Both the position numbers and the translations under genes were made by a program. The notes beneath the pieces were generated by a model, which saw nothing but the letters and a program-made list of their open reading frames with translations, ran no database searches and was not told where the DNA came from. From contig JBAYJY010000002.1 of assembly GCA_041664945.1 (NCBI GenBank), forward strand, positions 8,721-72,720: a stretch of DNA of 64,000 nucleotides, in the 5' to 3' direction. The DNA comes from a bacterium (lineage in GTDB: Bacteria; UBP15; UBA6099). Each line of letters begins with the position of its first letter. Positions within the stretch are counted from its first letter, which is position 1. Positions 1 to 52,960 of the stretch are shown here, one piece after another.

Positions 1-481
1 TGTCGGCGGACGCGCCGGAAAGGGCGGAGGAGTCGGCTTCGAGAAACCTGTCGACGCCGCCGGGCAGTCCGCGCCGCAACAGTCGCCATTTAGCTCCGTC
101 GGTGATTATGCCCCAGTCGATACTTTCGCTTTCGAGCGTTGAAATCAGGCGGCATCTTTCGGAAACGCTGTTCGGGTCTGCCGCCCGCAGAAGAACCGGT
201 TTAGATTTTTCCTGAGAGTTTGCGAGAACGATGCAGCCGCCGGTTTCGCGGATCGCGCGCAGGCCGAGAGCGTCGAGCGCCATGCCGGTGCGGCCGTTTT
301 TCGCCGCGTCATCCAGAGCTCCGCAAAGCGCATCAGACGTTTCGGGCGCTCTGCGCCATTCGCGCCACTTTTTCATTTCACGATCGAAAACAATATCGGA
401 AAACAGACGCTTGTTGGATAGCGGCGGAGTTGCCGGCGCGGCGGTTTCATCGCCGAAAATGGAAATTTGTTTCGCAGCCAT
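1..481 (-). CDS. partial CDS (N-terminal ~160 aa; gene continues past the left window edge), possible restriction-modification/BREX-type enzyme N-terminal domain
   Basis: The frame is open from ATG (complement of 479-481) to position 1. It is absent from the ORF track because it has no stop inside the window. My translation is MAAKQISIFGDETAAP...ESIDWGIITDGAKWRLLRRGLPGG. From memory, the WGIxTxGxxWRL motif recalls N-terminal nuclease-like domains of type IIG/BREX-like methyltransferase fusions; this is unverified. Confidence 0.35.
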   Translation of the reverse strand, partial: MAAKQISIFGDETAAPATPPLSNKRLFSDIVFDREMKKWREWRRAPETSDALCGALDDAAKNGRTGMALDALGLRAIRETGGCIVLANSQEKSKPVLLRAADPNSVSERCRLISTLESESIDWGIITDGAKWRLLRRGLPGGVDRFLEADSSALSGASAD

Positions 482-702
482 ATGAAGCCTCTCAAAATAT
501 ATCGGACATTGCCGGGCGCATTTGAAAATGCGTTCGGTTTGTCTCAAACGCTATATTACCACATCTGAGGCAAAAAGCGCCATGTTCGCGCGCGGAAGCG
601 CCGCGGCGCGGAATTTGGTGTATAATCAGAAATGCGAAAAGCCGACGCGAAAAAGTAAACGGATGAAATCCGGGCGAGCGGCCGCGGAGAGAGGCGACAA
701 CG

Positions 703-7077: not shown

Positions 7078-8082
7078 TTACAATGAGCCTTTCCAGATAA
7101 AAGAGCCGGAAACATTGATATAGCCGATCTTTCTGCCTGCCATTTCGACGTATATGTAACCGCCGGGTTTTATATCCGCGTCTCTGAATTGAGGATTGAA
7201 CAGGAATTGGCCGTCTTTGACGATGACTCCCCACTTGCCGCTCGATTTCACCGCCGCAAGACCGGAGTTGAATAATGTTACATCGTCGTATTGCGGCGCG
7301 ATCACTACTTTCCCTGATTTATCGATATATCCCCAGCGGTTCCCTTTTGCGATGCCTGCCCGGCCTTCGCGAAAACCTGTCGCTCCGTCGTACTTCGGCG
7401 GGAAAATCATTTTCCCTGTTTTGTCTATATAACCCCATTTGTCTTTGATTCTCACCGCCGCAAGGTTTTCCTCGAATGGTTTCGCCGCATCAAATTTTTG
7501 TTTGAAAGCCTGCTTGCCTGTCGCGTCAATGAACATATACCGGCACTCTGTTTCAGAACACGTGTCAGCGACCGCCGCCAGCCCCTGGGAAAAATCCGAT
7601 GCGTTGTTGAATTTCGAATCGATGACGATCTCTCCGCTTGCGTTTATATAGCCCCATTTCTCGCCGATTTGAACGGGCGCAAGTCCGCCTATGAAGGAGC
7701 CGGCGGCGATATATTGCGGCGCTATAACCACCTCGCCGGATGTGTTAATATAGCCCCACGAGCTGTCGATCTGCGCTCCCGCGAGTCCTTCGGAGAACGG
7801 CATTGTATTCTCGAATTGCGGTTTTATCGTCACGTTGCCTTGCGCGTCGATATAACCCCATTTTGAACCGACGGTCATGTCTGCCAAGCCTTCGGAAAAA
7901 GTTCCGATACCATTATATTTAGGAGGCACGATAACTCGGCCGAGCCTGTCTATCAGCCCCTGTTTGCCGCTGACATATATCAAAAGAAGGTCTTTGCCCG
8001 CGGCTGTGTTATCGGCGCCGAAACATGAGGAAGCGCTTAGAGCCGCCAGCAGCAATAACAGCGAGGCGCTTAACTTTTTCAT
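7078..8082 (-). CDS. secreted WG-repeat (KWG-type) protein
   Basis: 334 aa. The signal peptide is MKKLSASLLLLLAALSASSCFG. About 9 tandem ~35-aa repeats follow, of the form KWGYIDxxGxxVIxPxYD. Confidence 0.8.
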   Translation of the reverse strand: MKKLSASLLLLLAALSASSCFGADNTAAGKDLLLIYVSGKQGLIDRLGRVIVPPKYNGIGTFSEGLADMTVGSKWGYIDAQGNVTIKPQFENTMPFSEGLAGAQIDSSWGYINTSGEVVIAPQYIAAGSFIGGLAPVQIGEKWGYINASGEIVIDSKFNNASDFSQGLAAVADTCSETECRYMFIDATGKQAFKQKFDAAKPFEENLAAVRIKDKWGYIDKTGKMIFPPKYDGATGFREGRAGIAKGNRWGYIDKSGKVVIAPQYDDVTLFNSGLAAVKSSGKWGVIVKDGQFLFNPQFRDADIKPGGYIYVEMAGRKIGYINVSGSFIWKGSL

Positions 8083-8376: not shown

Positions 8377-11300
8377 ATGGCGTCAGCTAAGAAACGCTCA
8401 TTCCGGCTCATATTGTCATTTTTTATCATTTTCATTTCAACACAAGCGGGGGCAAAAGAGCTAAAGCTAACTCAGGGTTGGCAAATAGTAAGTGTTCCGG
8501 TCAAAGCCATCTCGTCAGGCGAAACGCCAAGCGACATAGCGGCAAATACTTCGATATATTCGTATGATGCCGGTCAAGTGGCAGAGGCGGTAGGCAAACC
8601 GCTTGTTTCCGGACGGGGCTATTGGATATACATGCGCGAAGCAAAGACAATAAGCGTCCCCGAAGTGAAGGCCGGACCGGACAGCGCATTCAAGGTGAAA
8701 CTCGAACCGGGCTGGAACATCATCGGAAACCCATACGAATATCCGCTGGACCCGGCTGTGTCGTTGCGCATATCAGGCGCCGCGTTTCAGGACTCGAAGA
8801 AAGTGATTCCCGTTTTGTTGACGTATGACGGCGATAGCGGAACATATCGATACGCGCAGATTCTCGAACAATGGAAGGGGTATTGCGTTTATGCGAATGA
8901 GGCGGCAGAACTGGAGATAATTCCGGCGATATATGAAGGGCCTGTGCCCGATATGCCGGATTTGTATGTGTTTCCGTTTAACGGAGGGGCTCAGATAGCG
9001 GATGCGGGCAACGGGGTAAAGTATGTAGCCGGCCAGTTGATCGCGGCGTTTGGCTCCGGAATTACGTATGAAGAAGCGTCGCGCGTCGCGCGCGAGGCAG
9101 GATTGTCCGTGGCCGGCGGGGATCGCGATGCCGGCGTGTACCAATTACAGATACCGCCGGGAATGAATGCAGAAGCGGCGGAGTCGGCGCTCGCAGCCGC
9201 TGGAGGCGTAATAGAGGTAGCGAAAAATTATCTATTTAAAGTGCAGGCTGTTCCGAATGATCCGGTTTTCACCGTGCCGCCGGTTGCAGGGGCGGGGTGG
9301 GGTTTTGAGAAGATTGGAATGCCGGGACTATGGGCGGAGTTCGCGCCGAAGAACGCGCCGGTTGTCGCCGCGCTTGACACCGGCGTCGACAAAACGCATC
9401 CTGAACTCGCCGGCCGCGTTTTGGAAGGCAGGAACTTCGTGAACTCCTCGGCGGGCGCGGACACGAGTGATGAGAACGGGCATGGAACGCAGGTAGCGGG
9501 GGTGATAGCGGCGGCTGGCAACAACTCGGCGGGCATGGCAGGCGTGTGCTGGAACTGCCGGATTCTGCCGGTGAAGGTGTGCGACGCGTCGGGACAGTGT
9601 CCCATGATGTCGATAATGAACGGAATAAGTTATGCGGCCGACATGAAGGCTCCGATAATAAATCTCGGAATCGGCGGCGACATGCCGCTCGACGACGCTG
9701 CGAAAGCAATAATCAGGATTTATGTAAAGTTGGCCCGGTCGAAGGGATCGATAATTGTGGCGCCCGCCGGGAACTCGTCTACGGACAATTTCGGAACTCT
9801 CACCGGAACGGACTCCGGGGTGGTGAATGTCGCGGCGACGGACGCGAACGACAATCGAGCGACATTCTCGAACTATGGCGGCATGGTAAACGTGGCGGCT
9901 CCAGGAGAGAATATTTATACGACCGATATGAACGGCGGATATAAGACGGTGAGCGGCACATCGATGAGCGCCGCGTTTGTATCGGGCGCGGCGGCGCTGC
10001 TGATTTCCGCAGGCGACAATTTAACTGTTGCGAATGCGATAGACCTGATCGCGGTGACTGTTGACCCGGTAAGCTCGAACGAGCCGATCGGCGGAAGACT
10101 GAACGTATCCTTGGCGATGAAATATTACAGACATTACACAAATAAGGCGCCGGAGATTGTGAATGTCGAAGTGATGCCGGGCGCAACGAACAAATCATAT
10201 ACGCTGAAAGCTAATGTCACCGATCAGGATGGGGACGCAATTACATACAAGTGGGCGGCTGGGAGCGGAGTTTTCAGCGCCGGCGCGGCCCAAAAGACAT
10301 GGACGCTGGACAAAGAGATAAAGGGCGTATACACGATAACGCTGACGGCGACCGACGCTTTCGGAGGCTCTGCTGAAAGCCGCGTTGGCGTGAATGTGAG
10401 CGGAACCGACCCGGCGCAGTTGACGGTGAAGGTCATTGATGCGAACGGCGTGGCGGTGACGGGGGCTATGGCGGAAGTGGGAGGCTCCGGGACGTTCACG
10501 ACCGGAGCGGACGGGCGGTTCTCCGTAAATGCCGGAGCGGCGGACGGCGTTTACGCTATTAAGATAAAGATAATAAAAGAAGGATTTGTCGACAAATTCG
10601 CAACGTTCCGGGTTTTAGCAGGTTCGCTTGAAAACGGAACGCAGAACATGACGGTTGAGCTTGAGCGTACGCCGACAGGTTCTGGAGCGGCGCGAGGACT
10701 TATAGTGCATGCTGACGGCACGACTGACACGGCGCTGCCGTCGAACGGAAGCGCTGCGGCGACGGTGACCGTCGGCGCGACAGACAGGGCTGTAGAGTTC
10801 ATCACGCCCGAGGTTGGCGGCGAACCGGCGAAAGTCGGCATTAAGTTCGGCGATGAAACAGGCGCCGGACCAGGAGCGGCGGCCACGCTCGGAGTTACAG
10901 GCCAAGTCACGGCCTCGATAATTTACGGCGATCCGACATCGGAAAGCGACATATTAAGAATGTTCCCCGGTGAATTTCTGACGAATGGCGACACGGGTTT
11001 CGGCGGTTCGGGAGAAGGCGCGCTTGTAACGGGCGGTTTCGCGCGAATCGATCTGACCGACGCGGCGGGCGCCCCGATCAAGAATTTCGCGGCGGGCGCG
11101 GAGGCGCTGGTGACAATGCGAATGCCGTTCGGCGTGCAGAACCCTGAAACTGGAAAAATGGCGGCGCAGGGCGATACGATTCCGATTCTCTTCTACGACG
11201 AGAATGCTGGCGAATGGATTGTAGAGCATGAAGCGGCCGGCTCGGTGAAACGCGCCGAAATCCAGCAGGACGCGGACGGAATGTTCGTGCAGTTCAAAGT

Positions 11301-14300
11301 GGCGCACCTGACGACATGGAATCTGGATTGGAAATCCATGTTGTGTCCGGAAGGACAGCCGACAATAAAGCTATATGACATGAACGGAATCTCGCTTGCC
11401 GGGCAGTCGGTATATGTGACTATTAACATATCGGGTTGGAACTCATGGCCTAATATAGTAACGGACGGATTTGTAAGTTTCCCAAGGGCGCCCAAGGATA
11501 TAGACTGGCAGTTGTGGGCGCAATGGAACGGATATACGTCAAAAGTGATGACGGTAAAGAATTGCGTTGTAGAGGAAAATCTCCAAGTCGGCCCGTGCGA
11601 TATGAAATGCGGGAACGACGCCGCATGCAGTGATGGGAATAATATGACGTATGACGTCTGCATGAGGCCGGGGCAGTGTACGGCGTCCTGCGTCAACATG
11701 CAATGCGCGCCCGTTTGCAACTCTGACGCCTCCTGCGACGACGGCAAACCGACGACGACGGACACATGCAGGAATGCAGGCGCGTGCGGCGCGTACTGCT
11801 CACACGTTAGCTGCAATGTTGGCTGCGGCTCAGACGCGAACTGCGAGGACGGCGATCCCGACACGCTCGACGTTTGTCTGCTGCCGGGCACATGCAATGC
11901 GACATGCAAAAAATATGACGTTCATTGCGATGTGCAGTTGGATAAAGTGAATTACTTCGCCGGCGATGAGATGCAGATCACTCTGACAGCCGTAAATAAA
12001 GGGCCGGCGGCGGTGACATGCGGAGTGGAGTCGGCGCTGAAAAGGGAACAGTCGATTGCGGTGTGGAATTCTTTCGACGACGGCATTTACATCACAATCG
12101 CTCCGGGTGATTCAGTGACGCAGACAATATATAAAACTATTCCGGACACCTGGGTCGCCACAGATTCCAACGCCGGGTCGGATTATGATTTGTACACAGT
12201 CCGGGAGGATGGAACGCGTTGGGACGGACGCGACAACTTCAACATTCACGTGCACAAGCCATGCGTGGTCGCATGCAAGACGGACGCGGAGTGCGCCGAC
12301 ACAAATCAAAATACTTATGATGTTTGCAAGGCTCCCTATCAATGTTTCTCTGCATGCAATCATCTGACATGCCCAGTGGCATGCGCTTCCGACTACGGCT
12401 GCGATGACGGCAACTCCGCGACAACGGACAGTTGCGCGAACCCGAAAACTTGCGACGCGAAGTGCTTCAACGGCTCGTGCGCGATCAAATGCACAACCAA
12501 TGCCGGATGTGATGACGGCAATCCGATGACCGCCGATTTATGCAGTCAGCCGGGCACATGCTCCTCGGCCTGCGTCAATGCGAACTGCACGCCTGTTTGC
12601 TCGAACGACTCGCAGTGCGACGATACCGATCCGCTCACGAGAGACACATGCGAGAATATCGGTTCGTGCGAAGCGACTTGCGCGCACACTGCCTGTGCGC
12701 CTGCGTGCGAGTTGGACTCGGAATGCGATGACACCGACCCGCTGACGATAGACTCCTGCCTGAATCCGAATACGTGCAATGCAGCCTGTACGCACGTCGC
12801 TTGTTCGCCGATATGTTCTGCTGATGGAGACTGTGACGACAATAATCTGCAAACATTGGATACATGCAAGAATCCGAACACATGCGCCGCTGAGTGCGAA
12901 AACTCGGCATGCACGCCACAATGCACTCAAAACTCTGACTGTAATGACAACAACGCGCTCACGCCTGTCGATGAATGCGTCAATCCGAACACATGCGCCG
13001 CGGAATGCAAAAACTGCACGCCATTCTGCGTAAACGATGTCAAGTGCGATGACTTCAATCTGGCCACGCGCGACAAGTGCGAAAACCCGAACACATGCAG
13101 CGCAACATGCTCCAATACGACATGCACGCCGGCGTGCGTAAATAACGCCGGATGCGACGACGATAACGCAGCTACTGCTGACGAGTGCTCAGCGCCGAAT
13201 ACTTGCGAAGCATTATGTAAAAATGTCGTTCCGGCGTGCAACAATAACGCCGACTGCAACGACAATAATCCGGGAACGGCGGACATCTGCTTGTTTCCGG
13301 GCAAGTTCTCGGCGAAATGCTCCAATACGTACAATTCGGTGTTTGTGTCCACGGCGAAAAACAGTTCGTGCTACATTGATGGCGGAACCGTAAAATGCTG
13401 GGGGTCAAATGGATATGGACAGCTTGGCGACGGCACGACAAATTATTCAGCAACGCTGGTAACTGTCAGTGGAATCACAAATGCGACAGCGCTCACGTCG
13501 GGGACGGACCACACATGCGCTCTGCTTTCCGACGGCGGCGTGAAATGCTGGGGTATAAATGATTACGGAACGCTTGGAAATGGAACGGGGATTGATTCAA
13601 GCGTCCCTGTAAGCGTTACGGATATGATGAACGTTGTTTCGGTTTCAGCAGGAGGCTCAAGCGCATGCGCTGTGATGAGAGACGGCTGGCTGAAATGCTG
13701 GGGGTATAATAAAAACGGAGAACTCGGAGACGGAACAACTAAGAACGCTTTCGTTCCCACGACTGTCGTTGGAATCACGAATGCGATATCCGTTTCGGTC
13801 GGATCCGGCTTTGCTTGCGCGCTTCTCAACAGCGGCGGCGTGAAATGCTGGGGCGATAATGCATTCGGAACTCTTGGGAACGGAACACCGGTCAATTCGT
13901 TATTGCCGGTTGCCGTCAGCGGGATAACCAACGCAGTTTCGGTGTCCGCCGGGAACAAGCAAGCGTGCGCGCTCCTTTCCGGAGGGAGCGTCATGTGCTG
14001 GGGGATGACTATTGTGGACGGGCAATTAAATATTGTGGAAACTCCGATAGAAATGCCCGGCGTAACAAACGCGTCGGCGGTTTCCGTCGGTAGTTTTTAC
14101 GTATGCGCAGTTATATCCGGCGGAAGTATGAAATGCTGGGGTGGCAACACTGAAGGACAGCTTGGGAGTGGCTCTGTTTCCACCATGCTTCCTCCCGCGC
14201 CTGTACCAGTTCTAAACGTCTCTGACGCTGTCAGCATTTCTGCAAGCGTATATCATACATGCGCGTTTCTTGCCTCTGGAAACGTCAAATGCTGGGGGAA

Positions 14301-14460
14301 TAACGATTATGGCAAGCTCGGCAACGGAACTACCGTTAGTTCAGCTACGCCTGTAGATGTGACGGCGTGTTTGACGGATGTCCACTGCGACGACGGCAAT
14401 TCGCAAACTACGGATGTATGCAACAAGCCGGGGCAGCCGGATGCTTATTGTACGCATTGA
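8377..14460 (+). CDS. giant secreted multidomain protein: subtilisin-like (S8) protease, Ig-like domains, Cys-rich repeat arrays and an RCC1-like beta-propeller
   Basis: 2027 aa. The signal peptide is SFRLILSFFIIFISTQAGA, and an SD-like GGGGGAA precedes the ATG. The S8 triad motifs are AALDTGVD (Asp codon 9376-9378), HGTQVAG (His 9481-9483) and GTSMSAAF (Ser 9961-9963). A PKD-like segment lies at ~10165-10400, a carboxypeptidase-regulatory-like segment at ~10417-10615, and a CARDB-like segment at ~11932-12255. Confidence 0.85.
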   Translation: MASAKKRSFRLILSFFIIFISTQAGAKELKLTQGWQIVSVPVKAISSGETPSDIAANTSIYSYDAGQVAEAVGKPLVSGRGYWIYMREAKTISVPEVKAGPDSAFKVKLEPGWNIIGNPYEYPLDPAVSLRISGAAFQDSKKVIPVLLTYDGDSGTYRYAQILEQWKGYCVYANEAAELEIIPAIYEGPVPDMPDLYVFPFNGGAQIADAGNGVKYVAGQLIAAFGSGITYEEASRVAREAGLSVAGGDRDAGVYQLQIPPGMNAEAAESALAAAGGVIEVAKNYLFKVQAVPNDPVFTVPPVAGAGWGFEKIGMPGLWAEFAPKNAPVVAALDTGVDKTHPELAGRVLEGRNFVNSSAGADTSDENGHGTQVAGVIAAAGNNSAGMAGVCWNCRILPVKVCDASGQCPMMSIMNGISYAADMKAPIINLGIGGDMPLDDAAKAIIRIYVKLARSKGSIIVAPAGNSSTDNFGTLTGTDSGVVNVAATDANDNRATFSNYGGMVNVAAPGENIYTTDMNGGYKTVSGTSMSAAFVSGAAALLISAGDNLTVANAIDLIAVTVDPVSSNEPIGGRLNVSLAMKYYRHYTNKAPEIVNVEVMPGATNKSYTLKANVTDQDGDAITYKWAAGSGVFSAGAAQKTWTLDKEIKGVYTITLTATDAFGGSAESRVGVNVSGTDPAQLTVKVIDANGVAVTGAMAEVGGSGTFTTGADGRFSVNAGAADGVYAIKIKIIKEGFVDKFATFRVLAGSLENGTQNMTVELERTPTGSGAARGLIVHADGTTDTALPSNGSAAATVTVGATDRAVEFITPEVGGEPAKVGIKFGDETGAGPGAAATLGVTGQVTASIIYGDPTSESDILRMFPGEFLTNGDTGFGGSGEGALVTGGFARIDLTDAAGAPIKNFAAGAEALVTMRMPFGVQNPETGKMAAQGDTIPILFYDENAGEWIVEHEAAGSVKRAEIQQDADGMFVQFKVAHLTTWNLDWKSMLCPEGQPTIKLYDMNGISLAGQSVYVTINISGWNSWPNIVTDGFVSFPRAPKDIDWQLWAQWNGYTSKVMTVKNCVVEENLQVGPCDMKCGNDAACSDGNNMTYDVCMRPGQCTASCVNMQCAPVCNSDASCDDGKPTTTDTCRNAGACGAYCSHVSCNVGCGSDANCEDGDPDTLDVCLLPGTCNATCKKYDVHCDVQLDKVNYFAGDEMQITLTAVNKGPAAVTCGVESALKREQSIAVWNSFDDGIYITIAPGDSVTQTIYKTIPDTWVATDSNAGSDYDLYTVREDGTRWDGRDNFNIHVHKPCVVACKTDAECADTNQNTYDVCKAPYQCFSACNHLTCPVACASDYGCDDGNSATTDSCANPKTCDAKCFNGSCAIKCTTNAGCDDGNPMTADLCSQPGTCSSACVNANCTPVCSNDSQCDDTDPLTRDTCENIGSCEATCAHTACAPACELDSECDDTDPLTIDSCLNPNTCNAACTHVACSPICSADGDCDDNNLQTLDTCKNPNTCAAECENSACTPQCTQNSDCNDNNALTPVDECVNPNTCAAECKNCTPFCVNDVKCDDFNLATRDKCENPNTCSATCSNTTCTPACVNNAGCDDDNAATADECSAPNTCEALCKNVVPACNNNADCNDNNPGTADICLFPGKFSAKCSNTYNSVFVSTAKNSSCYIDGGTVKCWGSNGYGQLGDGTTNYSATLVTVSGITNATALTSGTDHTCALLSDGGVKCWGINDYGTLGNGTGIDSSVPVSVTDMMNVVSVSAGGSSACAVMRDGWLKCWGYNKNGELGDGTTKNAFVPTTVVGITNAISVSVGSGFACALLNSGGVKCWGDNAFGTLGNGTPVNSLLPVAVSGITNAVSVSAGNKQACALLSGGSVMCWGMTIVDGQLNIVETPIEMPGVTNASAVSVGSFYVCAVISGGSMKCWGGNTEGQLGSGSVSTMLPPAPVPVLNVSDAVSISASVYHTCAFLASGNVKCWGNNDYGKLGNGTTVSSATPVDVTACLTDVHCDDGNSQTTDVCNKPGQPDAYCTH
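9250..10125 (+). other. peptidase S8 (subtilase) catalytic domain of the giant protein
   Basis: The D-H-S triad motifs appear in canonical order and spacing (DTG ... HGT ... GTSMS). Confidence 0.8.
11596..11931 (+). repeat. coding repeat block A: 3 copies of a 36-aa six-cysteine module
   Basis: The three copies are CDMKCGNDAACSDGNNMTYDVCMRPGQCTASCVNMQ, CAPVCNSDASCDDGKPTTTDTCRNAGACGAYCSHVS and CNVGCGSDANCEDGDPDTLDVCLLPGTCNATCKKYDVH. Confidence 0.8.
12262..13332 (+). repeat. coding repeat block B: 10 tandem copies (108-nt period) of the same six-cysteine module
   Basis: The pattern read from the translation is C-x2-x-C-x3-x2-C-[DN]-D-x-[ND]-x2-T-x-D-x-C-x-[NQ]-P-x-[TS]-C-x-A-x-C-x3. An example copy is CSPICSADGDCDDNNLQTLDTCKNPNTCAAECENSA. 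Confidence 0.85.
13364..14364 (+). repeat. seven RCC1-like repeats (predicted 7-blade beta-propeller)
   Basis: There are seven ~50-aa units with [GS]xVKCWGxNxxGxLGxGT ... V ... G[IV]TNAxxVSxGxxxxCAL. Confidence 0.8.
14368..14457 (+). repeat. orphan 14th Cys-rich module at the extreme C-terminus
   Basis: CLTDVHCDDGNSQTTDVCNKPGQPDAYCTH follows the propeller and has the same CDDGNxxTxDxC core. Confidence 0.7.
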
Positions 14461-16494: not shown

Positions 16495-16635
16495 AACGGC
16501 GTCGCTGTCGCTTTCAGGCGAATTAAACTAATATTTCAAATCCAAATAATTAAAAATATTTGTTGTAAAAACGGCTTGAAGTTCTATATTATATGTCTCG
16601 GAGTTAGGAACGAACTCTTTTGCGAGGTGCGCAAC

Positions 16636-17394
16636 ATGCCCGATAACGAAGTGATTCTCCGAATTAAAAACCTGTCGAAAATTTACGACAACACAGTGCT
16701 TGCCGTGGACAATCTGGATCTCGACATTCACTCGAGCGAGATTTACTGCATGCTTGGCGCGAACGGGGCCGGCAAAACGTCCACGCTGATGCTGATACTC
16801 GGCTTCTCCGACCCGACGGGCGGATCGGTCGAGATATGCGGCATCGACGTTAACAAGGATCCGCTCAAGGCGAAGAAGAAGGTCGCTTTCGTGTCCGAAA
16901 ACGTGCAGCTTTACGGCAACTTCACCGGCCGCCAGAACCTCGATTTCTTCACGAAACTGGCAGGCAGGCCGAACGTGTCCGACGATGAATACAACAAGGT
17001 GCTGCTGCGTGTCGGACTCGCCGAAGCGGCGCACAAGCGCCGCGTGAAGGGCTATTCGAAAGGGATGCGCCAGAGGCTCGGAATAGCGATCGCGATCATG
17101 AAGCAGGCGCAGCTCATACTGCTCGACGAACCGACGTCGGGACTCGACCCGAAAGGCGGCATGGAGTTCCTGCGCCTGTGCGACGAAATGCGGCAGGAGG
17201 GCAAGGGCATTCTAATGACGACGCACGACATCTTCCGCGCGAAGGAAATAGCGGACCGCGTCGGCATTATGAGTTCCGGCAACCTCGTGCGCGAGCTTGA
17301 ACGCAAGGAAATCGAGGATGAAAATCTTGAGGAACTTTATCTGAAATACATCAGTCAGGACATGACGCACGGCAAGGTCATCAGCAAGAAATAA
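16636..17394 (+). CDS. ABC transporter ATP-binding protein
   Basis: Walker A is GANGAGKTS, the signature is YSKGMRQRLGIA, and Walker B is LILLDEPTSGLD. I chose ATG 16636 (MPDNEVILRIKNL) over the track's upstream start at 16576. Confidence 0.9.
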   Translation: MPDNEVILRIKNLSKIYDNTVLAVDNLDLDIHSSEIYCMLGANGAGKTSTLMLILGFSDPTGGSVEICGIDVNKDPLKAKKKVAFVSENVQLYGNFTGRQNLDFFTKLAGRPNVSDDEYNKVLLRVGLAEAAHKRRVKGYSKGMRQRLGIAIAIMKQAQLILLDEPTSGLDPKGGMEFLRLCDEMRQEGKGILMTTHDIFRAKEIADRVGIMSSGNLVRELERKEIEDENLEELYLKYISQDMTHGKVISKK

Positions 17395-17436
17395 GGCCGC
17401 CGCCAGCGGCGCCTTTATCACGGGGTAACGATAGCC

Positions 17437-18840
17437 ATGCTCTATCACATAATAAGAAAAGAAATGCTTCTCAACCTCGTCAGTTTCAGGTTCATCATTT
17501 CGATCTCTTTGTTGTTCGTGCTGGTGGTCGGAAGCATGAACATAATGGCGGTGAATTACGGGCGGCGCCTGCAGGACTACTCGGTCGGCGCTGATATGCA
17601 CGCGACTGATTTGGCGAGCATGAACAGCCGCCCGCAGTTCGAGGCGTTCGGAGTGACGAAGGATCCGCGCCCGGCAATGCTGGGGATTTTCTCGATCGGG
17701 CTGGACCCGCAGATGAGCCGCTCGATCAGCATACCCGGCTTCGCGATGGGCGGCGGGGGCGGCGGCGGCGGACGGATTGTTTTTTCATACTCAAAGCTCG
17801 CAGGAGTCTCGCCGGAGGGCAGCAAGTATGCCAACCCGATTTTTAATCTCTTCCAGCCGCCAGATTTCATATACATCGTAAATATCGTTCTCAGCCTTCT
17901 CGCTATCCTTTTCGCTTTCGACTGCATCTCCGGAGAAAAGGAAAATCAGACACTCAAACTGATGCTCACGAATTCGATTCCCCGCGATGTCATACTGATA
18001 GGGAAATGGATCGGCGGCACTCTCTCTCTTCTTATTCCGTTCATTATATCTTTCGGGATCGGGTTTCTAACGGTGATGATGCGGCCCAACGTTGATTTAT
18101 CGAACGGCGCCGGCTTGCGCGTGCTTCTGATATTATTACTTTCCCTGCTGTTCATCGCGGTGTTCTTTTTGGTCGGAATGGTATTCTCAACATTCGCGGC
18201 GCGTTCATCCACCGCTTTAATTACATCGCTGTTCGCCTGGGTTTTCTTCGTGATCGTGATTCCAAACATCGCGCCGGTAATCTCGCGCCAGTTTGTGCCG
18301 ATCAAGACCTCCGATTCTATAGTTCGAGAGGCCGAGCGAATGGAACAGGACATGACGCACGAGATATGGAAAAAAGAGAGAAGCGATGAAGAACAGAAAA
18401 AAATGGTGGATAAGATGCACAAGGATCTGCCTGAAAAAGTCCGGGCGCTCGAAGACCGATGGCTGAACAGTCTCACGAGCCAAGTCAAACTCGCGATGAA
18501 TATCTCGCGCATCTCTCCGTCCGCCGATTACATCTTCGCATCAACCGCGATAGCCGGCACCGGCGTCGACGACTATCAGAAACTGCGCGATGAGATTCTC
18601 AGATACAGAACCCTCTTAAGCGACAATAGGAAAATATTCATCCAAAATGACGACTCAAAACCTATTCCGATGCTGTACATCAATATACTTATGGATAAAG
18701 TCCCAGTTTTTGAGGATCGCAGGCTGGATGTGGCGTCCAGCGTGAACAACGCGATCGTGGACTTCGCGATTCTTTCCGTTTATATGATCGTTCTATTTCT
18801 GATCGCGTTCCTCAAGTTCCTGAACTACGACGTAAAATAA
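17437..18840 (+). CDS. ABC-2 type transporter permease (large, with extracytoplasmic/cytoplasmic insertions)
   Basis: 467 aa. The N-terminus MLYHIIRKEMLLNLVSFRF is typical of ABC-2/NosY-like permeases. It has 6 hydrophobic helices, a Gly8 tract (GFAMGGGGGGGGR) and a charged helical insert before the last TM. Confidence 0.7.
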   Translation: MLYHIIRKEMLLNLVSFRFIISISLLFVLVVGSMNIMAVNYGRRLQDYSVGADMHATDLASMNSRPQFEAFGVTKDPRPAMLGIFSIGLDPQMSRSISIPGFAMGGGGGGGGRIVFSYSKLAGVSPEGSKYANPIFNLFQPPDFIYIVNIVLSLLAILFAFDCISGEKENQTLKLMLTNSIPRDVILIGKWIGGTLSLLIPFIISFGIGFLTVMMRPNVDLSNGAGLRVLLILLLSLLFIAVFFLVGMVFSTFAARSSTALITSLFAWVFFVIVIPNIAPVISRQFVPIKTSDSIVREAERMEQDMTHEIWKKERSDEEQKKMVDKMHKDLPEKVRALEDRWLNSLTSQVKLAMNISRISPSADYIFASTAIAGTGVDDYQKLRDEILRYRTLLSDNRKIFIQNDDSKPIPMLYINILMDKVPVFEDRRLDVASSVNNAIVDFAILSVYMIVLFLIAFLKFLNYDVK

Positions 18841-18865
18841 ATCCAACGGGAGAGCAAACGACATC

Positions 18866-20812
18866 ATGCTGTTCACCCTTATACGCAAAGAGTTGTTGGA
18901 CAACTTCCTGAGCTTCCGGTTTGTTGTCTCGTCCATTATCGTTGTTCTCATCATGACGCTGAGCGTCGGCATTCTGATGCAGGACTACACGAGCCGGCGA
19001 GACTCCTACAACCAGAACCAGAACGCCTACTACGACGCCGCGAAATCGCTCGACAACTACCTTGAGCTCATGTTCACCGGCATCGGCGCCGACCGGCCGC
19101 CCTCTGAGCTTCAGTTCCTTTACACCGGAACCGAGAAGAATCCAAACCGCAGCACGGTCATCTATCCGTTCTATAAGCCCAGCTTTCAGGGAGAACTGAA
19201 TTTCAACCCGGTGTTCCCGCTGTTCCCGGCGGTTGACCTGCTTTTCGTCGTCAGCATCGTCTTGAGTCTCATCGCTTTCGTTTATTCGTACGACGCTGTC
19301 TGCGGGGAACGTGAGAGCGGAACCCTCAAGCTTCTTATGTCGTACTCAATCCCGAGGGATAAGATTATCCTCGCAAAATGGTTTGGCGGATATATCTCGC
19401 TGATCATCCCATATGTGTTCGGCATTATTCTTTGTTCCCTGTTCATGGTTGTGAACACTTCGGTGAACCTAACCGGCCAGGCGTGGGCCGCATTTTTCCT
19501 GACAACGCTTGTGTCGCTTTTATTCATCGCTGTTATGTATTCAGTGGGTTTGTTCGTCTCGGTCAGGAGCAAGCTGTCATCAACATCGATATCGGTCCTG
19601 CTTTTCATCTGGGTCATATTTGTATTGGTTGTGCCGAACGCGGCCCCGTTTGTTGTAGACAAAATACAGCCTGCGCCGACGCCGAGTCAGGTGATGAGCC
19701 GCATCAAATTCAAGTCGGGCAACGCGATCAACGGTCTTTTGGAAGACATGATTAAGATGTTCGAGGACGCCACCGGATTCAACATCAATCAGATAGATTT
19801 CGGGGGTCAGGGCGGCGATAAAAAGAAGGAAGATTCAGGCCAGCAGGAAACGAAGCAGCAGGAGCAGACTCAGCAGCAGACGGCGTCCGCAAGCGGCGGA
19901 GGCGATTCAGGCGCGACAGCGGCGAAAGCGCCCGCAGGGCTGGACCTGCGCGCTCTCGAAAGCCTAAGCGGAGAAATAACAGACGCCGACCTGCGCGATC
20001 TGCAGTTGAAGGGCTGTTCCAACTGGGTGGACAAGAAGCTCAAAGAGAAGTTCGGCATGACAATGGATCAGGCCAAAAAGATGATCAAGGATTACGGCGT
20101 AGACGTAGATGTCAACGAAATAATGAAGCAGTGCGAATCGAAGAAGAAAGAACTGATCGCATTAAAGAAATCCGGAGCGTCGAACGCCGATATAGCGGCG
20201 CAGGCCGGTTCCGGCGCAGGAGCGCCGGCGGTCGCCGCAGCGCAGCCGGTTCAAAAAGAGCCTGAGAAAAAGGTTAAGCCACAAGAGGTATTTTCGAAAT
20301 TCATGGCTCTTCCGGAAGACGTCAAGGGACAGTTCTTCACCCGTTATTACAACACTTTCGTGGAAGCGTTCAAACAGACAAGCATCATGAGCGGTCAGGA
20401 AGAAGACAAATACAGCCGGGCGGTTGAGTCTCAGATCACGCTCACAAAATGGATTTCGCGTATATCTCCGGTTTCGGCATACGTTTATGCAGTCACCGAT
20501 ATCGCTGACACCGGCATTGAACACGAAAAATATCTCAAAAAGTCCATCTGGACCTATCAGAGCCAGTTCCTCGATTACATCACAAAGAAATTCAATATGC
20601 CCGACTCCGAGCGAACTCACGGCATTTTCGGAGGCGCGCTGCGCGAGCCCCCGTACACTCTCGACGGCCTTTCAAAATATCAATACAAGCCGATGCCGAT
20701 CGCGGAACGCCTGAAATTTGCGCTCGTCGATATCGCTATCCTCTTTATCTTCATCGTCGCTTTCTTCCTCGCGGCTTTCTTCTCTTTCCTCCGCGCGGAA
20801 ATCATCGACTGA
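18866..20812 (+). CDS. ABC-2 type transporter permease paralog with ~165-aa low-complexity/helical insertion
   Basis: 648 aa. The N-terminus MLFTLIRKELLDNFLSFRF is paralogous to the upstream permease. The insertion spans ~19800-20300 (GGQGGDKKKEDSGQQETKQQEQTQQQ...). Confidence 0.7.
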   Translation: MLFTLIRKELLDNFLSFRFVVSSIIVVLIMTLSVGILMQDYTSRRDSYNQNQNAYYDAAKSLDNYLELMFTGIGADRPPSELQFLYTGTEKNPNRSTVIYPFYKPSFQGELNFNPVFPLFPAVDLLFVVSIVLSLIAFVYSYDAVCGERESGTLKLLMSYSIPRDKIILAKWFGGYISLIIPYVFGIILCSLFMVVNTSVNLTGQAWAAFFLTTLVSLLFIAVMYSVGLFVSVRSKLSSTSISVLLFIWVIFVLVVPNAAPFVVDKIQPAPTPSQVMSRIKFKSGNAINGLLEDMIKMFEDATGFNINQIDFGGQGGDKKKEDSGQQETKQQEQTQQQTASASGGGDSGATAAKAPAGLDLRALESLSGEITDADLRDLQLKGCSNWVDKKLKEKFGMTMDQAKKMIKDYGVDVDVNEIMKQCESKKKELIALKKSGASNADIAAQAGSGAGAPAVAAAQPVQKEPEKKVKPQEVFSKFMALPEDVKGQFFTRYYNTFVEAFKQTSIMSGQEEDKYSRAVESQITLTKWISRISPVSAYVYAVTDIADTGIEHEKYLKKSIWTYQSQFLDYITKKFNMPDSERTHGIFGGALREPPYTLDGLSKYQYKPMPIAERLKFALVDIAILFIFIVAFFLAAFFSFLRAEIID

Positions 20813-20991: not shown

Positions 20992-22542
20992 GTGATTTCT
21001 GTTATTATTTGCGCAGTGGATGCCAAGCATGGAACGACAACTTTCATAAGCTCCAAAGCCAATCAACAGCTTTTAATTATTACTGCTGAGCTGGTGATAT
21101 CCTTTGCTCTTATTTATATTTCCGTTTACCTGGACTGGCCTCAGCATGATATTCTGCGTTACGCGATTCTTGTCCCGGTATACCAGGCAGGCGTATATTA
21201 CGGACTCGTCGGCGGAATTATTGCAAGTGTCGTGTCCGTTCTGTCGTTTCTGCCGCTGATACCCGTTGATCCGTTAATTCGAGCCATGTCGTACGGCGTT
21301 CCAACGTTTATTCTGATGCTTGTGTTCATCATTTTCTTCGGCGCCTATATAGGCGCGACCTTAGGCTACGCCCATAAGACACAGAAATACATTGACGGCC
21401 TTTCTCTCGCAATCATGAAAATTGCGCGCGAAGTGGAGACGAGAGATGTAATGATAAAGCTGGCTGAAGAATCTGTCGCCATGCTTGACGCAATGTACGC
21501 GGCCGTTTTTATTGACGGCGCCGCGAAGGAAAACAGTGGCGGCGAGATACTGGCGCTTGAAGCTCAAAGCGGGGAACTCAGATCACTGAAAGATGTGCCC
21601 GAAGACAATGCGCTGATCAGCGCCGCGCGAGAAGGCTTGACGATTGTTTCAAATTCCATCTCCGGGGATTCGCGCCTTCAGTCTTTGCCGGGCGGCGAGT
21701 TGCTGAAAACAGCGGCGATCATCCCCGTGGTCATGAAGGATCGCTCGATAGGCTCGCTGCTTGTGTGCAACAAAAAAAACGGCGACTCTTTCACGGAAGA
21801 AGACTATGCCGTTCTTAAAATGTTAACGGAGGCGACCGCCGGAACCATTCTCAACATAGAGCAGGAGCGAGAGCGGCAGGAGGAAAAACTTCGCGTGGAA
21901 CAGATGAAGGAACTGTTTTCAAGATATGTATCCGCTTCCGTCGCCGACTTCGTTCTTGAGAATCCGGAAATAATGAAAGGCCACTGGCAGGAAGTGACCA
22001 TGCTGGTGTCCGACGTGCGGGATTTTACAAGAATTTCAGAGACTCTTTCTTCAAAAGAGGTTGTGAGGCAGCTAAACGAATACTTCACACGCATGGTGGA
22101 TGTCATTCTCGACCACAAAGGGACGATAGATAAATTCGTGGGCGATTGCATCATCGCCTATTGGGGCGCGCCGGCGCCCGATCCGGAGCATCCGCTCAAC
22201 GCCGCAAGGGCCGCGCTTGCGATGGCCAGGGCTTTGGACCTGATGAACGCCGAATGGCAGGATGAAGACCGCCCTCAGTTCAAAACCGGCATCGCTATTC
22301 ACACCTGCAGGGCGCTAATGGGCAATATCGGCGACGATCGGAAAAAGGCTTTCACTATCATGGGAGAGGAAGTCGAAAAAACCATACAGATCGAAGCCAT
22401 GACGAAAACCCTGAATGCCGGGATCATCGCTACAGATGAAACCTATAAAGCCATTGCGGGGAAAATTGACTGCGAACTGATATCGCAGTCAGGCGCGGCA
22501 GGAATGCAGAAGCTTTACAAAATACAGACTGGACAATGTTGA
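20992..22542 (+). CDS. membrane (4 TM)-GAF-class III nucleotidyl cyclase, Asn/Arg-deficient ('C1-like')
   Basis: 516 aa with a GTG start per the track, which is uncertain. The cyclase motifs VTMLVSDVRDFT and DKFVGDCIIAYWGAP are intact. The canonical GDTVNxASR segment reads GEEVEKTIQ. A GAF-like region contains IIPVVMKDRSIGSLLVCNKKNGDSFTEED. Confidence 0.8.
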   Translation: MISVIICAVDAKHGTTTFISSKANQQLLIITAELVISFALIYISVYLDWPQHDILRYAILVPVYQAGVYYGLVGGIIASVVSVLSFLPLIPVDPLIRAMSYGVPTFILMLVFIIFFGAYIGATLGYAHKTQKYIDGLSLAIMKIAREVETRDVMIKLAEESVAMLDAMYAAVFIDGAAKENSGGEILALEAQSGELRSLKDVPEDNALISAAREGLTIVSNSISGDSRLQSLPGGELLKTAAIIPVVMKDRSIGSLLVCNKKNGDSFTEEDYAVLKMLTEATAGTILNIEQERERQEEKLRVEQMKELFSRYVSASVADFVLENPEIMKGHWQEVTMLVSDVRDFTRISETLSSKEVVRQLNEYFTRMVDVILDHKGTIDKFVGDCIIAYWGAPAPDPEHPLNAARAALAMARALDLMNAEWQDEDRPQFKTGIAIHTCRALMGNIGDDRKKAFTIMGEEVEKTIQIEAMTKTLNAGIIATDETYKAIAGKIDCELISQSGAAGMQKLYKIQTGQC

Positions 22543-23402: not shown

Positions 23403-24308
23403 ATGAGTGTTGAAAAAATCGATATCGCGTCTGAAGTCGCCGCGCTGAAATTCAGAACGGGCAGTTTTGACGTCTGGAAAAAAACAAACCTGCTCAGGGA
23501 ACCGATATTCATACATGCTGTTCTCATAATTGCGCTTTATGGCATCGGGAACGCTGTTGTTCAGATATTATTCAAAACAAACCATATATCATTTTCATTA
23601 AAAGAGGCTTCATATCCTTTATTGTATCTATCTCCTATACTTGGAGGTTTGTACATTGCCGGCGGTTTGAACAGACACAGCGTCTGCATCTCTGTCGTTT
23701 ATATGTTTTTATACGCTCTATTTGAATATGTGATTAGCCAATATTTTCACAGTATTCAATCAATTGTCGGAATATTTCAATTTATTCCCGGATGCGCTCT
23801 GATAGTTTGGTGGATAGTGACCAAACCTGAAATTATGGGCAAGCTCGGCATGAAAAAATCCGACTCTCTGACGGTTTCACTGTATGCTTTTATTTTGATT
23901 CTGATCATTGCCTCCTATGCGGCGCACCTTCTTATTGTATATGGTTTCAAGTTGGAGTTCAGGCCAGTTGAAATGGCAGCGTATTTTTTAGGCAATTTCA
24001 TAACCTGCTTGTTTGTTACCAGCTATTGTTTCGGCATGTGGAACCTGCTGAAGAAGCGAGGCGCAAACACATTTCAGGGTATTCTGGCGCTCATGGCGCT
24101 TTTCGGCCTCATAGAGGCCCCGGTCATGATAGCTTTTGCGCTTATTGGAATAGCGAGCCCGGCGATGGCGGTTGCCGGCATCGTCTTGAACTTGATGCTT
24201 ACATTGACCGTGATGCACTTTTCCTTCAGCGCGCTGAAAAACTCATTGACGGCGACATTCCTGTTGGCGATGGTCATGCTGCTTTTGAAGGCGGCGGGGG
24301 TTTTCTAA
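23403..24308 (+). CDS. polytopic membrane protein, second degenerate CPBP-like paralog
   Basis: 301 aa, starting 12 nt after the previous gene. It has 8 hydrophobic helices. The C-terminal half (CFGMWNLLKKRG ... HFSFSALKNSLTATFLLAMV) has the same topology, and I see no intact metalloprotease motif. Confidence 0.45.
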   Translation: MSVEKIDIASEVAALKFRTGSFDVWKKTNLLREPIFIHAVLIIALYGIGNAVVQILFKTNHISFSLKEASYPLLYLSPILGGLYIAGGLNRHSVCISVVYMFLYALFEYVISQYFHSIQSIVGIFQFIPGCALIVWWIVTKPEIMGKLGMKKSDSLTVSLYAFILILIIASYAAHLLIVYGFKLEFRPVEMAAYFLGNFITCLFVTSYCFGMWNLLKKRGANTFQGILALMALFGLIEAPVMIAFALIGIASPAMAVAGIVLNLMLTLTVMHFSFSALKNSLTATFLLAMVMLLLKAAGVF

Positions 24309-24334
24309 AACCGACAGCAGCGCCGGAAAGCCTG

Positions 24335-25801
24335 ATGATGGAACGAAAGAAAAAAATACTTTTTATAATTATCTCAAGCGCGCTATGTCTTGTGGCGACA
24401 ATGAGCGCTCACTATTGGGATATGCCGATGTGCGTGTGGACGAGCCCTCTCGTCGCAGTTCCCGTCGTCTATGCGGGAATCCATTTCCGGCGCGCCGGTT
24501 CCGCCGCCACGGCTTTCATTTTGTTAGTCGCGCAGGTGCCGGTAATACTCATATACGCTTCGCGGCATCTTGAAGGAGGAACGAAGTATTTCACATCTAT
24601 TGTGACGGCTTTGATCGTTGCGATATATGTGGGTCACAGGCAGCGGAAGAGCAGGGATAATTCCCGGCATCTCAACAAAATACACGACACGGTCAGGCGG
24701 ATTCAGCAGAATATCGAACCGAAACTCCTTCTTTCTGAACTGGAGGAACAGTTTAAGGAAATAGGAAGCGCTGATTCGGTTGAAATCTGTCTGCTGGACC
24801 AGGAAGGCATTCTAAGAGAATACAAATCCGGCGAGGAAGTGTCTCCGGACGACCACGCTTACTATAAGATTCTCAAGAATAGGAATTTTGTCGTAAGCGC
24901 CAATGTTCCGAACGATGCGCGTTTTGAGTATATCGGAGGAATGGAAAAAAACGACGCGGCGGAGCAGTTCGCGATATTTCCAATCGAGTATGGAGGCGCG
25001 GCAAGAGGAGTGATATCCATAATCGAATCAAGAGACGGGAGGCTGGGCAAAGAAGAGATTACATTTCTCAACGCGTACAAAAAAGCCATTGAAAATGCCC
25101 TTGAGGTTGTTGAGAAACGAGAGGATAAAATCAAGCACGAGCTTCAGAAGAAACGGATTAGAGACACGTTTTCATCCTATGTGTCGAGAAGCGTCGCCGA
25201 GGAGATATTAAAGGACCCCGACAAGCTTGAGCTTGGAGGGAAAAGCCAGATCGTAACCGTGATGTTCACCGAGATTGTGAATTTCAAGGCGCTTCAGAAG
25301 ACTGTGGAGCCGTCGTTGCTGTTTGACTCCCTTAATGAATATTTCGCCGCCGCGATTGACACTATATTCGAATACGACGGAACTCTGGACAAGTTCATAG
25401 GAGATAACGTCATGGCATTCTGGGGGGCGCCGATTCCAATGCCGGACAGCGAACTGAGAGCCGTTCAGTGCGCGTTGAGTTTGAATAGAAAGGTCAGCGA
25501 ACTAAATTCCCGTTGGAGACAGGAAGGTAGGGAGGAGTTCATTTTCTCGATAGGAATAAACTCGGGGGAAGTGGTTGCGGGCAACATTGGAAGCATTCGA
25601 CGCATGGAATATACGATCATTGGAGACACCGTCAATACGGCCTCGCGAATAAAATCTATCTCTATATCGAAAAGCATCCCGATATTGGTTGGAGAAACGA
25701 CATTTCAAAAAGTTAAAGACAGGGTTCAAATCGTTGAAAGATACGATGCGACTGTCAAAGGAAAAGCGGAAGCGATATCAGTATATCAACTGTCAGTGTG
25801 A
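24335..25801 (+). CDS. membrane (4 TM)-GAF-class III nucleotidyl cyclase, canonical Asn/Arg ('C2-like'), Glu at first metal-Asp position
   Basis: I chose the start at ATG 24335 (MMERKKKILFII), because the track ORF's 5' extension from 24026 overlaps the previous gene. Motifs are VTVMFTEIVNFKAL (Glu where Asp is expected), DKFIGDNVMAFWGAP and YTIIGDTVNTASRIKS. Confidence 0.8.
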   Translation: MMERKKKILFIIISSALCLVATMSAHYWDMPMCVWTSPLVAVPVVYAGIHFRRAGSAATAFILLVAQVPVILIYASRHLEGGTKYFTSIVTALIVAIYVGHRQRKSRDNSRHLNKIHDTVRRIQQNIEPKLLLSELEEQFKEIGSADSVEICLLDQEGILREYKSGEEVSPDDHAYYKILKNRNFVVSANVPNDARFEYIGGMEKNDAAEQFAIFPIEYGGAARGVISIIESRDGRLGKEEITFLNAYKKAIENALEVVEKREDKIKHELQKKRIRDTFSSYVSRSVAEEILKDPDKLELGGKSQIVTVMFTEIVNFKALQKTVEPSLLFDSLNEYFAAAIDTIFEYDGTLDKFIGDNVMAFWGAPIPMPDSELRAVQCALSLNRKVSELNSRWRQEGREEFIFSIGINSGEVVAGNIGSIRRMEYTIIGDTVNTASRIKSISISKSIPILVGETTFQKVKDRVQIVERYDATVKGKAEAISVYQLSV

Positions 25802-46827: not shown

Positions 46828-46840
46828 AAGGTGGTGTGTC

Positions 46841-48055: not shown

Positions 48056-48999
48056 GCAACCGGTTCAAGGGCCGCGACCTTCTTACATTGAGGGATTTCG
48101 AGGCCGGCGAAATAATTGAAATCATTGACTTGGCGGCGGCGCTGAAGGGCGAGTTGAAGCGCGCGGGATTTAATTCCGCGCAGCCTCTCGCGAACAAATC
48201 GGTGGCGCTGTATTTCGAGAAGCATTCGTTGCGCACACGCGTCTCGTTCGAGGTCGGAATCCGGCAACTCGGCGGGCAGTCAATTTTCATGAATTCGTCC
48301 ACGACGCATTCCGAGCGCGGCGAGCCGATGATGGACTCGGCGCGAGTTCTCACCCGGTATGTGCATGGCGTTGTTTACCGCGCTTTCAAACACGCTGACG
48401 TGGCCGAGATGGCGCGCTATGCCGACATTCCCGTCATCAATGCGCTTTGCGACCAGGACCATCCTTGTCAGGCGCTAGCGGACCTGCTCACGATATACGA
48501 GCACAAGGGCAGCTCCGGAAAAATCAAAGTCGCTTATATCGGCGACGCTGCGAACAATGTGGCCGCGTCGCTTGTCACAATATTTACAAAAGTCGGAATC
48601 GACTTCGCGCTCGGCTGCCCGGATAGTTACCGGCCTGCGGATGAACTTCTTGCCGAAGCGGAGGCCGACGCGAAAGCGGGCGGTTCGACGCTGAACGTGT
48701 TCAAGAATCCGGCCGACGCCGCTCGCGACGCAGATATTGTATACACGGACGTCTGGATCAGCATGGGAGACGAAGAGGAAGCCGGCGCGCGCAAACAGGC
48801 TTTTGAAGGATACATGGTTGATGTGAAATTAATGTCTGCCGCGGCGCCGAATGCGCTCTTCATGCACGATATGCCGGCTCACCGCGGCGAAGAGGTTCAT
48901 TCCGATGTGATCGACAGCGGCAGTTCGATAATAATCGATCAGGCGGAAAACCGGCTGCATGCTCAGAAAAGCGTGATGGCATTGACGATAGGCGATTGA
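48052..48999 (+). CDS. argF: ornithine carbamoyltransferase
   Basis: 315 aa with a 4-nt overlap with argD. Motifs are FEKHSLRTRVSFE, HPCQALADL and FMHDMPAHRGEEV. Confidence 0.9.
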   Translation: MSNRFKGRDLLTLRDFEAGEIIEIIDLAAALKGELKRAGFNSAQPLANKSVALYFEKHSLRTRVSFEVGIRQLGGQSIFMNSSTTHSERGEPMMDSARVLTRYVHGVVYRAFKHADVAEMARYADIPVINALCDQDHPCQALADLLTIYEHKGSSGKIKVAYIGDAANNVAASLVTIFTKVGIDFALGCPDSYRPADELLAEAEADAKAGGSTLNVFKNPADAARDADIVYTDVWISMGDEEEAGARKQAFEGYMVDVKLMSAAAPNALFMHDMPAHRGEEVHSDVIDSGSSIIIDQAENRLHAQKSVMALTIGD

Positions 49000-49045
49000 A
49001 TAATCGGGAATACGCGCTGTTTAACGAAATGGCGCATGGCGGTTT

Positions 49046-52923: not shown

Positions 52924-52960
52924 TTCCGTTTACGGCGCGTATGTTTTTGTGTTCGATTCG

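Follow-up and report, generated by a model that had tools for sequence, protein, structure and literature searches.

What are the short cysteine (Cys)-rich units strung along an exported protease of an uncultured bacterium, do they belong to a repeat family that has already been described, and what might they do in the protein? The gene in question encodes a multidomain subtilase and lies in a stretch of 64,000 nucleotides (nt) (GenBank assembly GCA_041664945.1, contig JBAYJY010000002.1, positions 8,721 to 72,720 of the forward strand; GTDB lineage UBP15, UBA6099), here called the window, which is ordinary chromosome of its host. All nucleotide positions below are those of the window. A preliminary description, made from the letters of the DNA, had pointed to a 36-residue, six-Cys repeat with a coding period of 108 nt and a CDDGNxxTxDxC core, reminiscent of the Myxococcus-type repeat and yet different from it. 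Judged from sequence comparisons, the repeat is related to the known Cys-rich acidic repeats but distinct from them and not part of a curated family, and it probably works as a disulfide-stapled, possibly Ca2+-binding mini-domain that forms stalks, and so acts as a stiff spacer, in exported multidomain proteins.

The repeat unit and its family

The array lies in frame within a single open reading frame (ORF; Table 1). When the whole window was scanned in six frames, the core motif turned up exactly 14 times, always in this ORF and in this frame. The consensus of the 14 units, CxPxCxxDAxCDDxNxxTxDxCxNPGTCxAxCxNxx, follows the layout C1-x3-C2-x5-C3-x10-C4-x5-C5-x3-C6-x4, in which the stretch between C3 and C4 reads C3-DDxNxxTxDx-C4, and agrees with the pattern and the period that had been proposed. 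Also as proposed, three units are followed by an insert, which measures 114 amino acids (aa), then by ten further units, and one more unit stands at the C-terminus of the protein. The six Cys of the preliminary description hold for 12 of the 14 units; unit 13 (start 13225), which has V at C1 and F at C5, and the C-terminal unit have four. Two units depart from the regular length, unit 10 (start 12910) with 35 aa and unit 12 (start 13123) with 34 aa. C5, C11, D13, T18, D20, C22 and C32 are invariant in all 14 units and stand at fixed spacing, the Cys among them being C2, C3, C4 and C6 of the layout. Cys counts, for which a parity check had been suggested, are even in every block, with 18, 58 and 4 in the three stretches of repeats and 2 in the insert; the stretches of repeats are acidic, with an isoelectric point of about 4.1.

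The regular units share a mean pairwise identity of 53% in nucleotides and 43% in protein, and Tandem Repeats Finder did not detect a 108-nt tandem array in the DNA. Such divergence between the units, with no tandem repeat detectable in the DNA, marks the array as old and as maintained by selection that acts on the protein, in line with the first reading of it. The short strings said to be shared between copies are there as well: AATCCGAACACATGC is present in two exact copies and in a third with one mismatch, where 0 would be expected. Minus-strand ORFs that run over the array (e.g. 11193-11909 and 12538-12930) were taken as shadows of the coding frame.

A profile built from the units was searched exhaustively against 1.84 billion cluster representatives. 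In this library the window protein scores E = 6e-167 over 14 stretches, which excludes a chance occurrence of the pattern. The search retrieved 957 clusters at E <= 1e-3, of which 387 remain at <= 1e-10 and 93 at <= 1e-30; the relatives have 2 to more than 27 units per protein. It was this exhaustive profile search that brought the family to light; a single-sequence, word-indexed search gave 6 relatives only, and a homologue search with a 2-unit alignment gave no matches. Among GTDB genomes, the window protein as query found three distant loci only, one in Chitinophagales and two in metagenome-assembled genomes (MAGs) of Myxococcales, all of them weaker relatives; the genome from which the window comes was not among the matches. 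Members that carry a name include a hypothetical protein of Candidatus Diapherotrites (P0023), 'vWA domain-containing' proteins of Candidatus Pacearchaeota and a bacterial 'kelch repeat-containing' protein. An N-terminal hydrophobic stretch was present in 122 of 153 family proteins, and the partner domains found in the relatives are extracellular types (MG2, PKD, CARDB, CarboxypepD_reg, RCC1, kelch, vWA and FGE-sulfatase).

Comparison with described repeat families

The array and its single units were compared with Pfam-A (models up to 2025) and NCBIfam (June 2026), in which the cut-offs are 20.8 bits for TIGR02232 and 27 bits each for PF13948 and PF00526. At E <= 10, Pfam had no match on the array or on single units. 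NCBIfam had none on the array at the same threshold, and the C-terminal unit alone gave 13.0 bits on TIGR02232 (E = 0.067), under its cut-off. Genuine Myxococcus-type repeats from relatives, used as a positive control, reach 46.6 and 84.7 bits with TIGR02232; on P0007, a relative with 27 units of the present type, that model had no match. Pfam searches of 8 and then of 51 relatives never covered the repeat, and left only sub-threshold Dicty_CTDC traces of 15-16 bits against the 27 required. A strong match to a described family over the full length of the unit, which would have spoken against the first reading, thus did not turn up. In literature searches we found no description of the repeat, nor anything that links the eukaryotic 'CysRRep' repeats, known from papers on horizontal gene transfer and with a consensus published as a figure only, to this family.

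Could the units nevertheless be diverged Myxococcus-type repeats (TIGR02232 myxo_disulf_rpt; PF13948 DUF4215; IPR011936), with nothing new about them? Both kinds are acidic, Cys-rich extracellular tandem repeats of about 30-38 residues without an established function, and both have the core C-D-D-G-N-x5-D-x-C with the same C-x10-C spacing. When the unit profile is aligned with the Myxococcus-type repeats, hhalign gives 87% probability (E = 4e-06) over 19 columns, and the low-scoring TIGR02232 match of the C-terminal unit and the occurrence of relatives in Myxococcales MAGs point the same way. However, this alignment covers unit positions 6-24, that is half of the unit, and the flanks on both sides of it differ: the N-terminal half is C-x3-C-x5 in the window units and CGNG-x6-E-x in the Myxococcus-type repeat, and the C-terminal half is T-x-D-x-C-xNPGTC-x3-C in the former and GDGC-x3-C in the latter. 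The four-Cys framework C-G-[ND]-G-x(6-9)-C-DDGN-x3-GDG-C-x3-C does not occur in the window units, and a regular expression for the Myxococcus form matched only in other parts of other proteins. The array, moreover, has no score on TIGR02232 or PF13948, against 46-85 bits for the genuine repeats, and the two kinds form blocks of their own within single proteins (P0001, P0014, P0027, P0034, P0044 and P0129). We therefore consider simple membership improbable. The resemblance that the preliminary description had noticed would reflect a distant relationship or a shared core, and its view that the units are nonetheless different was borne out.

A second candidate is the Dictyostelium CTDC family (PF00526), composed of 24-residue Cys-rich repeats with a CDDxNxCTxDxC core that are found in extracellular matrix proteins of slime moulds. 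The window units have the likeness of a C-D-D-x-N...T-x-D-x-C core, and two relatives, P0025 and P0012, reach 15.3 and 15.8 bits on PF00526 (E about 0.01-0.02, model positions 2-19). In two others, P0118 and P0121, an extra Cys precedes the conserved Thr to give C-T-x-D-x-C, the Dictyostelium-type motif, which suggests a continuum between the two kinds of repeat. That the units belong to this family is, however, most improbable: the scores lie under 27 bits and the window array has no match, the period is 34-36 residues and not 24, position 17, directly before T18, is never Cys in the 14 window units, and P0118 itself has no NCBIfam match.

The arrays of calcium-binding epidermal growth factor (EGF) domains in fibrillin and thrombomodulin offer a likeness of another sort. 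Their domains have about 36-40 residues, six Cys, three disulfides and an acidic N-terminal Ca2+ site, and strung head to tail they form stiff rods. We use this as an analogy of mechanism only, not of descent. The Cys spacing is different, and the C1-C5 pairing proposed below for the present units is unlike the EGF pattern of 1-3, 2-4 and 5-6. Pfam has no EGF match on the array, and there was no significant match to EGF-like domains in sequence or fold; a profile search of all PDB sequences gave nothing significant, its best entry being the DIDEC...C...C stretch of thrombomodulin EGF5 at E = 0.52.

Cysteine pairing, predicted fold and the proposed stalk

The relatives provide the variation from which the pairing of the Cys can be approached. 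In the hmmsearch alignment of the top 150 relatives, which holds 965 units, C2, C3, C4 and C6 are kept; 647 units have these four Cys only and 241 have all six. Units with C5 most often have a period of 36 residues, those without C5 one of 34. The six-Cys, 36-residue unit that prevails in the window is thus a minority subtype of a larger four-Cys, 34-residue family. The large surface proteins P0013, P0014 and P0164 of Pacearchaeota, annotated as vWA proteins, have the four-Cys, 34-residue form, and the Diapherotrites protein P0023, a large surface protein annotated as hypothetical, has mostly six-Cys units. In P0008 (6297 aa), units such as that at residues 1293-1326 have C-x2-C at their start and no C5, which leaves five Cys, the odd one without an obvious partner.

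C1 and C5 behave as a pair. In 903 units, both were present in 208 and neither in 622, while C1 alone was found in 3 and C5 alone in 70 (Fisher p about 6e-138), and in most of the 70 units with C5 only, C1 is displaced by 1-2 residues. A bond between neighbours, C5(n)-C1(n+1), does not fit the 46 junctions at which a six-Cys unit adjoins a four-Cys unit, among them that of window units 12 and 13; pairing within the unit does. In a mean-field direct coupling analysis (DCA) of 922 units the strongest coupling was that between positions 1 and 28. This method produces artefacts on invariant columns, and when those columns were removed only the 1-28 coupling and the hairpin contacts 23-33, 23-31 and 20-34 stood out. 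Because C1 and C5 are gained and lost together, a disulfide between the two inside the same unit is very probable. The hairpin contacts suggest that C4 and C6 are opposite each other, and C2, C3, C4 and C6 presumably make two further disulfides. The earlier proposal of three disulfides per unit is thus borne out in part, one bond having gained strong support from co-occurrence.

An AlphaFold2 (AF2) model of units 5-7, based on a 39-row alignment of three-unit segments, has a mean predicted local distance difference test score (pLDDT) of 96.3 and a predicted template modelling score (pTM) of 0.67. In each unit it predicts a helical turn at positions 8-11 and a beta-hairpin formed by positions 18-23 and 31-36. 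Foldseek found no PDB neighbour for the three-unit model (best E = 0.8, template modelling score (TM) 0.30), and none in BFVD (viral), where nothing fell below E = 0.8 either.

One may ask whether the Cys are bonded at all, or whether the four invariant ones bind a metal such as Zn2+, an arrangement that would suit an anaerobe. Exactly four Cys are invariant, the host has an anaerobe-type corrinoid activase, and no disulfide-forming enzyme was seen in the window, all of which would fit metal binding. Yet the proteins are exported, as judged from the signal peptide and the hydrophobic N-termini, and the units stand among extracellular domains. Zinc knuckles have other Cys spacings than the C-x5-C and C-x9-C of these units. 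In addition, the paired gain and loss of C1 and C5 is behaviour expected of a disulfide and not of a metal site, and DCA together with the predicted secondary structure suggests that C4 faces C6 across the hairpin (register i+j = 54). We regard metal binding as very improbable.

Disulfide bonding leads to the following proposal. Each of the 14 units would be one copy of an extracellular mini-domain, 34-36 residues long and uncurated, made of an acidic N-terminal loop with one helical turn and then a beta-hairpin, in which the four universal Cys (C2, C3, C4 and C6) would form two disulfides. In the subtype of the window a third bond, C1-C5, would link the beginning of each unit with the hairpin loop of that same unit, taking the period from 34 to 36 residues and stiffening the unit. 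Set head to tail without linkers, the units would give an extended, stiff and protease-resistant stalk, which would hold the subtilase, the PKD domain and the all-beta 'mid' domain apart from the C-terminal RCC1 propeller of this Sec-exported protein. The invariant polar residues D/N12, D13, N/D15, T18 and D20, which lie in the loop closed by C3 and C4, are a putative Ca2+ site, and Ca2+ binding by them is plausible. The single rod of about 470 residues first envisaged had to be given up, as the 114-aa insert, a predicted beta-sandwich, breaks it into two segments of 108 aa and 357 aa. Elsewhere, exported proteins rich in Cys from uncultured bacteria have been interpreted as giving rigidity and/or surface attachment (PMC4736985).

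Attachment is the essence of another explanation, in which the units serve mainly to bind polysaccharide, mineral or host-cell surfaces, in the manner of an adhesin or a lectin, and do not act as a passive spacer. DPANN archaea, which live attached to hosts, have giant surface proteins with long arrays (Pacearchaeota vWA proteins, a Diapherotrites protein), and P0007 joins its 27 units with Ca2+-stabilised adhesin repeats. A diatom adhesive-trail protein contains the related DUF4215 repeat (bioRxiv 10.1101/2023.03.06.531300). On the other hand, the surface positions that lie between the Cys are poorly conserved from unit to unit, as the 43% identity indicates, the copy number is as free as is typical of spacers, and the gene neighbourhood suggests no ligand. 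We hold a primarily binding function to be unlikely.

Several points weigh against the proposed stiff, disulfide-bonded spacer. With a pTM of only 0.67, the model is less certain about how neighbouring units are angled, and hence about stiffness, than about the fold of the single unit. C2, C3, C4 and C6 never vary, so that co-loss carries no pairing signal for these four Cys. The Ca2+ site is drawn solely from the conserved pattern of Asp, Asn and Thr. An AcsV-like gene hints at an anaerobic lifestyle of the host, which bears on where disulfides would form, and there is no Dsb or VKOR gene within the window; for these two reasons oxidative folding in the host has to be assumed. Finally, a spacer role is compatible with ligand binding and does not exclude it.

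The host protein, its cassette and the surrounding genes

The protein that carries the array begins with MASAKKRSFRLILSFFIIFISTQAGA, which reads as a Sec-type signal peptide. Public collections contain the identical protein with two start calls, P0009 (NCBI, 1960 aa, from Met68) and P0154 (JGI/ENA, 2027 aa, from Met1), which differ over window positions 8377-8577; as the signal peptide is present only in the 2027-aa version, the shorter call probably truncates it. The translation of the S8 domain contains stretches like the usual Asp, His and Ser motifs of subtilases (ALDTGVD, HGTQVAG and GTSMSAA). For the propeller, Pfam gave 2e-56 with PF25390, 1.7e-41 with PF00415 (6 stretches) and 7 stretches with PF13540. 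The 2027-aa sequence shows no evident C-terminal anchor or sorting signal. Cys170 in the N-terminal domain (window 8884-8886) is unpaired and makes the total of 103 Cys odd, all other regions having even counts.

Table 1. Features of the subtilase gene and of other genes in the window (nucleotide positions of the window; residues of the 2027-aa protein)
Feature	Residues	Position	Strand	Basis or remark
Whole gene, exported multidomain subtilase		8377..14460	+	single ORF, 2027 aa
N-terminal region, ~180 aa				shared only with P0005 (jackhmmer)
Fervidolysin-like prodomain	206-279		+	Pfam PF22148, 1e-05
Peptidase S8 (subtilase) domain	326-562	9352..10062	+	Pfam PF00082, E = 8.8e-45
PKD domain	589-674		+	Pfam PF00801, 6e-07
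CarboxypepD_reg-like domain, weak				after PKD, before mid domain
All-beta 'mid' domain, about 330 aa	735-1073	10579..11595	+	jackhmmer, AF2
Cys-rich units 1-3	1074-1181	11596..11919	+	six Cys, 36 aa each
Units 1, 2, 3		11596-11703, 11704-11811, 11812-11919	+	
114-aa insert	1182-1295	11920..12261	+	motif-free
Cys-rich units 4-13 (ten)	1296-1652	12262..13332	+	
Starts of units 4-13		12262, 12370, 12478, 12586, 12694, 12802, 12910, 13015, 13123, 13225	+	
RCC1-like beta-propeller, seven-bladed	about 1653-1993	13333..14355	+	Pfam PF25390, PF00415, PF13540
C-terminal unit, DVTACLTDVHCDDGNSQTTDVCNKPGQPDAYCTH	1994-2027	14356..14457	+	four-Cys form, without C1 and C5; ends at stop codon
Divergent upstream gene, seven WG_beta_rep repeats		7078-8082	-	PF14903, E = 9e-84
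Three-gene ABC-2 transporter set		16576-20812		
Two adenylate/guanylate cyclase-domain genes, downstream of ABC-2 set		20992-22542 and 24026-25801	+	first also GAF domain
argJ-argD-argF, then ruvB (housekeeping block)		45595-50089	+	
Two adjacent SurA/PrsA-like peptidyl-prolyl isomerase genes		50935-52923 and 52941-54467	+	unusually long (662, 508 aa)
AcsV-like corrinoid activation/regeneration protein		58047-59708	+	E = 4e-107, below equivalog cut-off

The mid domain, for which Pfam has no model, was found by jackhmmer in P0012, P0019, P0028, P0031, P0035, P0042, P0073, P0077, P0083 and P0099 as well, and in these relatives it always stands directly upstream of Cys units. The insert, too, is found elsewhere, adjoining units in eight other clusters (P0003, P0012, P0028, P0033, P0035, P0040, P0042 and P0138). 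It carries a Cys pair of its own, C1184 and C1215, which we argue is internal, since in P0003 the insert is N-terminal with no unit before it and has the same two Cys. An AF2 model of residues 735-1331 (16-row alignment, pLDDT 79.9) reproduced the elements of the repeat unit and gave an all-beta mid domain with pLDDT of about 80-90; it made the insert all-beta with about 8 strands, predicting a beta-sandwich domain. Foldseek with this 597-residue model returned generic beta-sandwich matches only (E about 1e-4, global TM 0.12-0.15), and those to arrestin/Spo0M, the GH3 C-terminal domain and macroglobulin domains were set aside as too generic for any function to be read from them.

The order of units and then RCC1 is repeated in P0028, P0031, P0040, P0042, P0073 and P0083, and the cassette as a whole, in which the mid domain is followed by six-Cys units, optionally with the 114-aa insert, and then by the RCC1 propeller, is found again in at least six further clusters. 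Because this order recurs in other clusters, we read the window protein as the cassette fused behind a subtilase. The cassette (window 10579-14355) was found in many exported proteins that are otherwise different (P0012, P0019, P0028, P0031, P0035, P0040, P0042, P0073, P0083 and P0099).

The protease gene apparently stands alone, with the divergent WG-repeat gene upstream of it and a convergent gene downstream. In addition to the genes listed in Table 1, the window contains relA/spoT, a GH2 gene and another glycosidase gene, and Rfam gave no RNA match in it. For ArgJ, the best organism-named relative is 62% identical, and closer matches of 66-83% are sequences without an organism name; as no organism-named sequence exceeds 62%, the host belongs to a poorly sampled lineage.

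What does the family mean for the proteins in which it occurs? No new biological principle is involved, since acidic repeats rich in Cys are already familiar from surface proteins. A wider reading, which we offer as possible though doubtful, is that the unit is an undescribed Ca2+-binding, disulfide-stapled mini-fold without a PDB neighbour from which giant surface proteins of DPANN archaea and uncultured bacteria are built; the length of the array would then set the reach of adhesive or degradative heads, and gain of the C1-C5 bond might act as a stiffening switch between the 34- and the 36-residue form. Being small, very confidently predicted, without a structural neighbour and available in natural forms with and without one disulfide, the unit is an easy structural target and might also serve as a scaffold for stable spacers. 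In about a thousand protein clusters, many of them giant proteins that uncultured bacteria and DPANN archaea export, the domain libraries leave a long stretch blank. Such proteins are currently annotated as 'hypothetical', 'vWA domain-containing' or 'kelch repeat-containing', and a model of the family would close this gap and mark them as extracellular.

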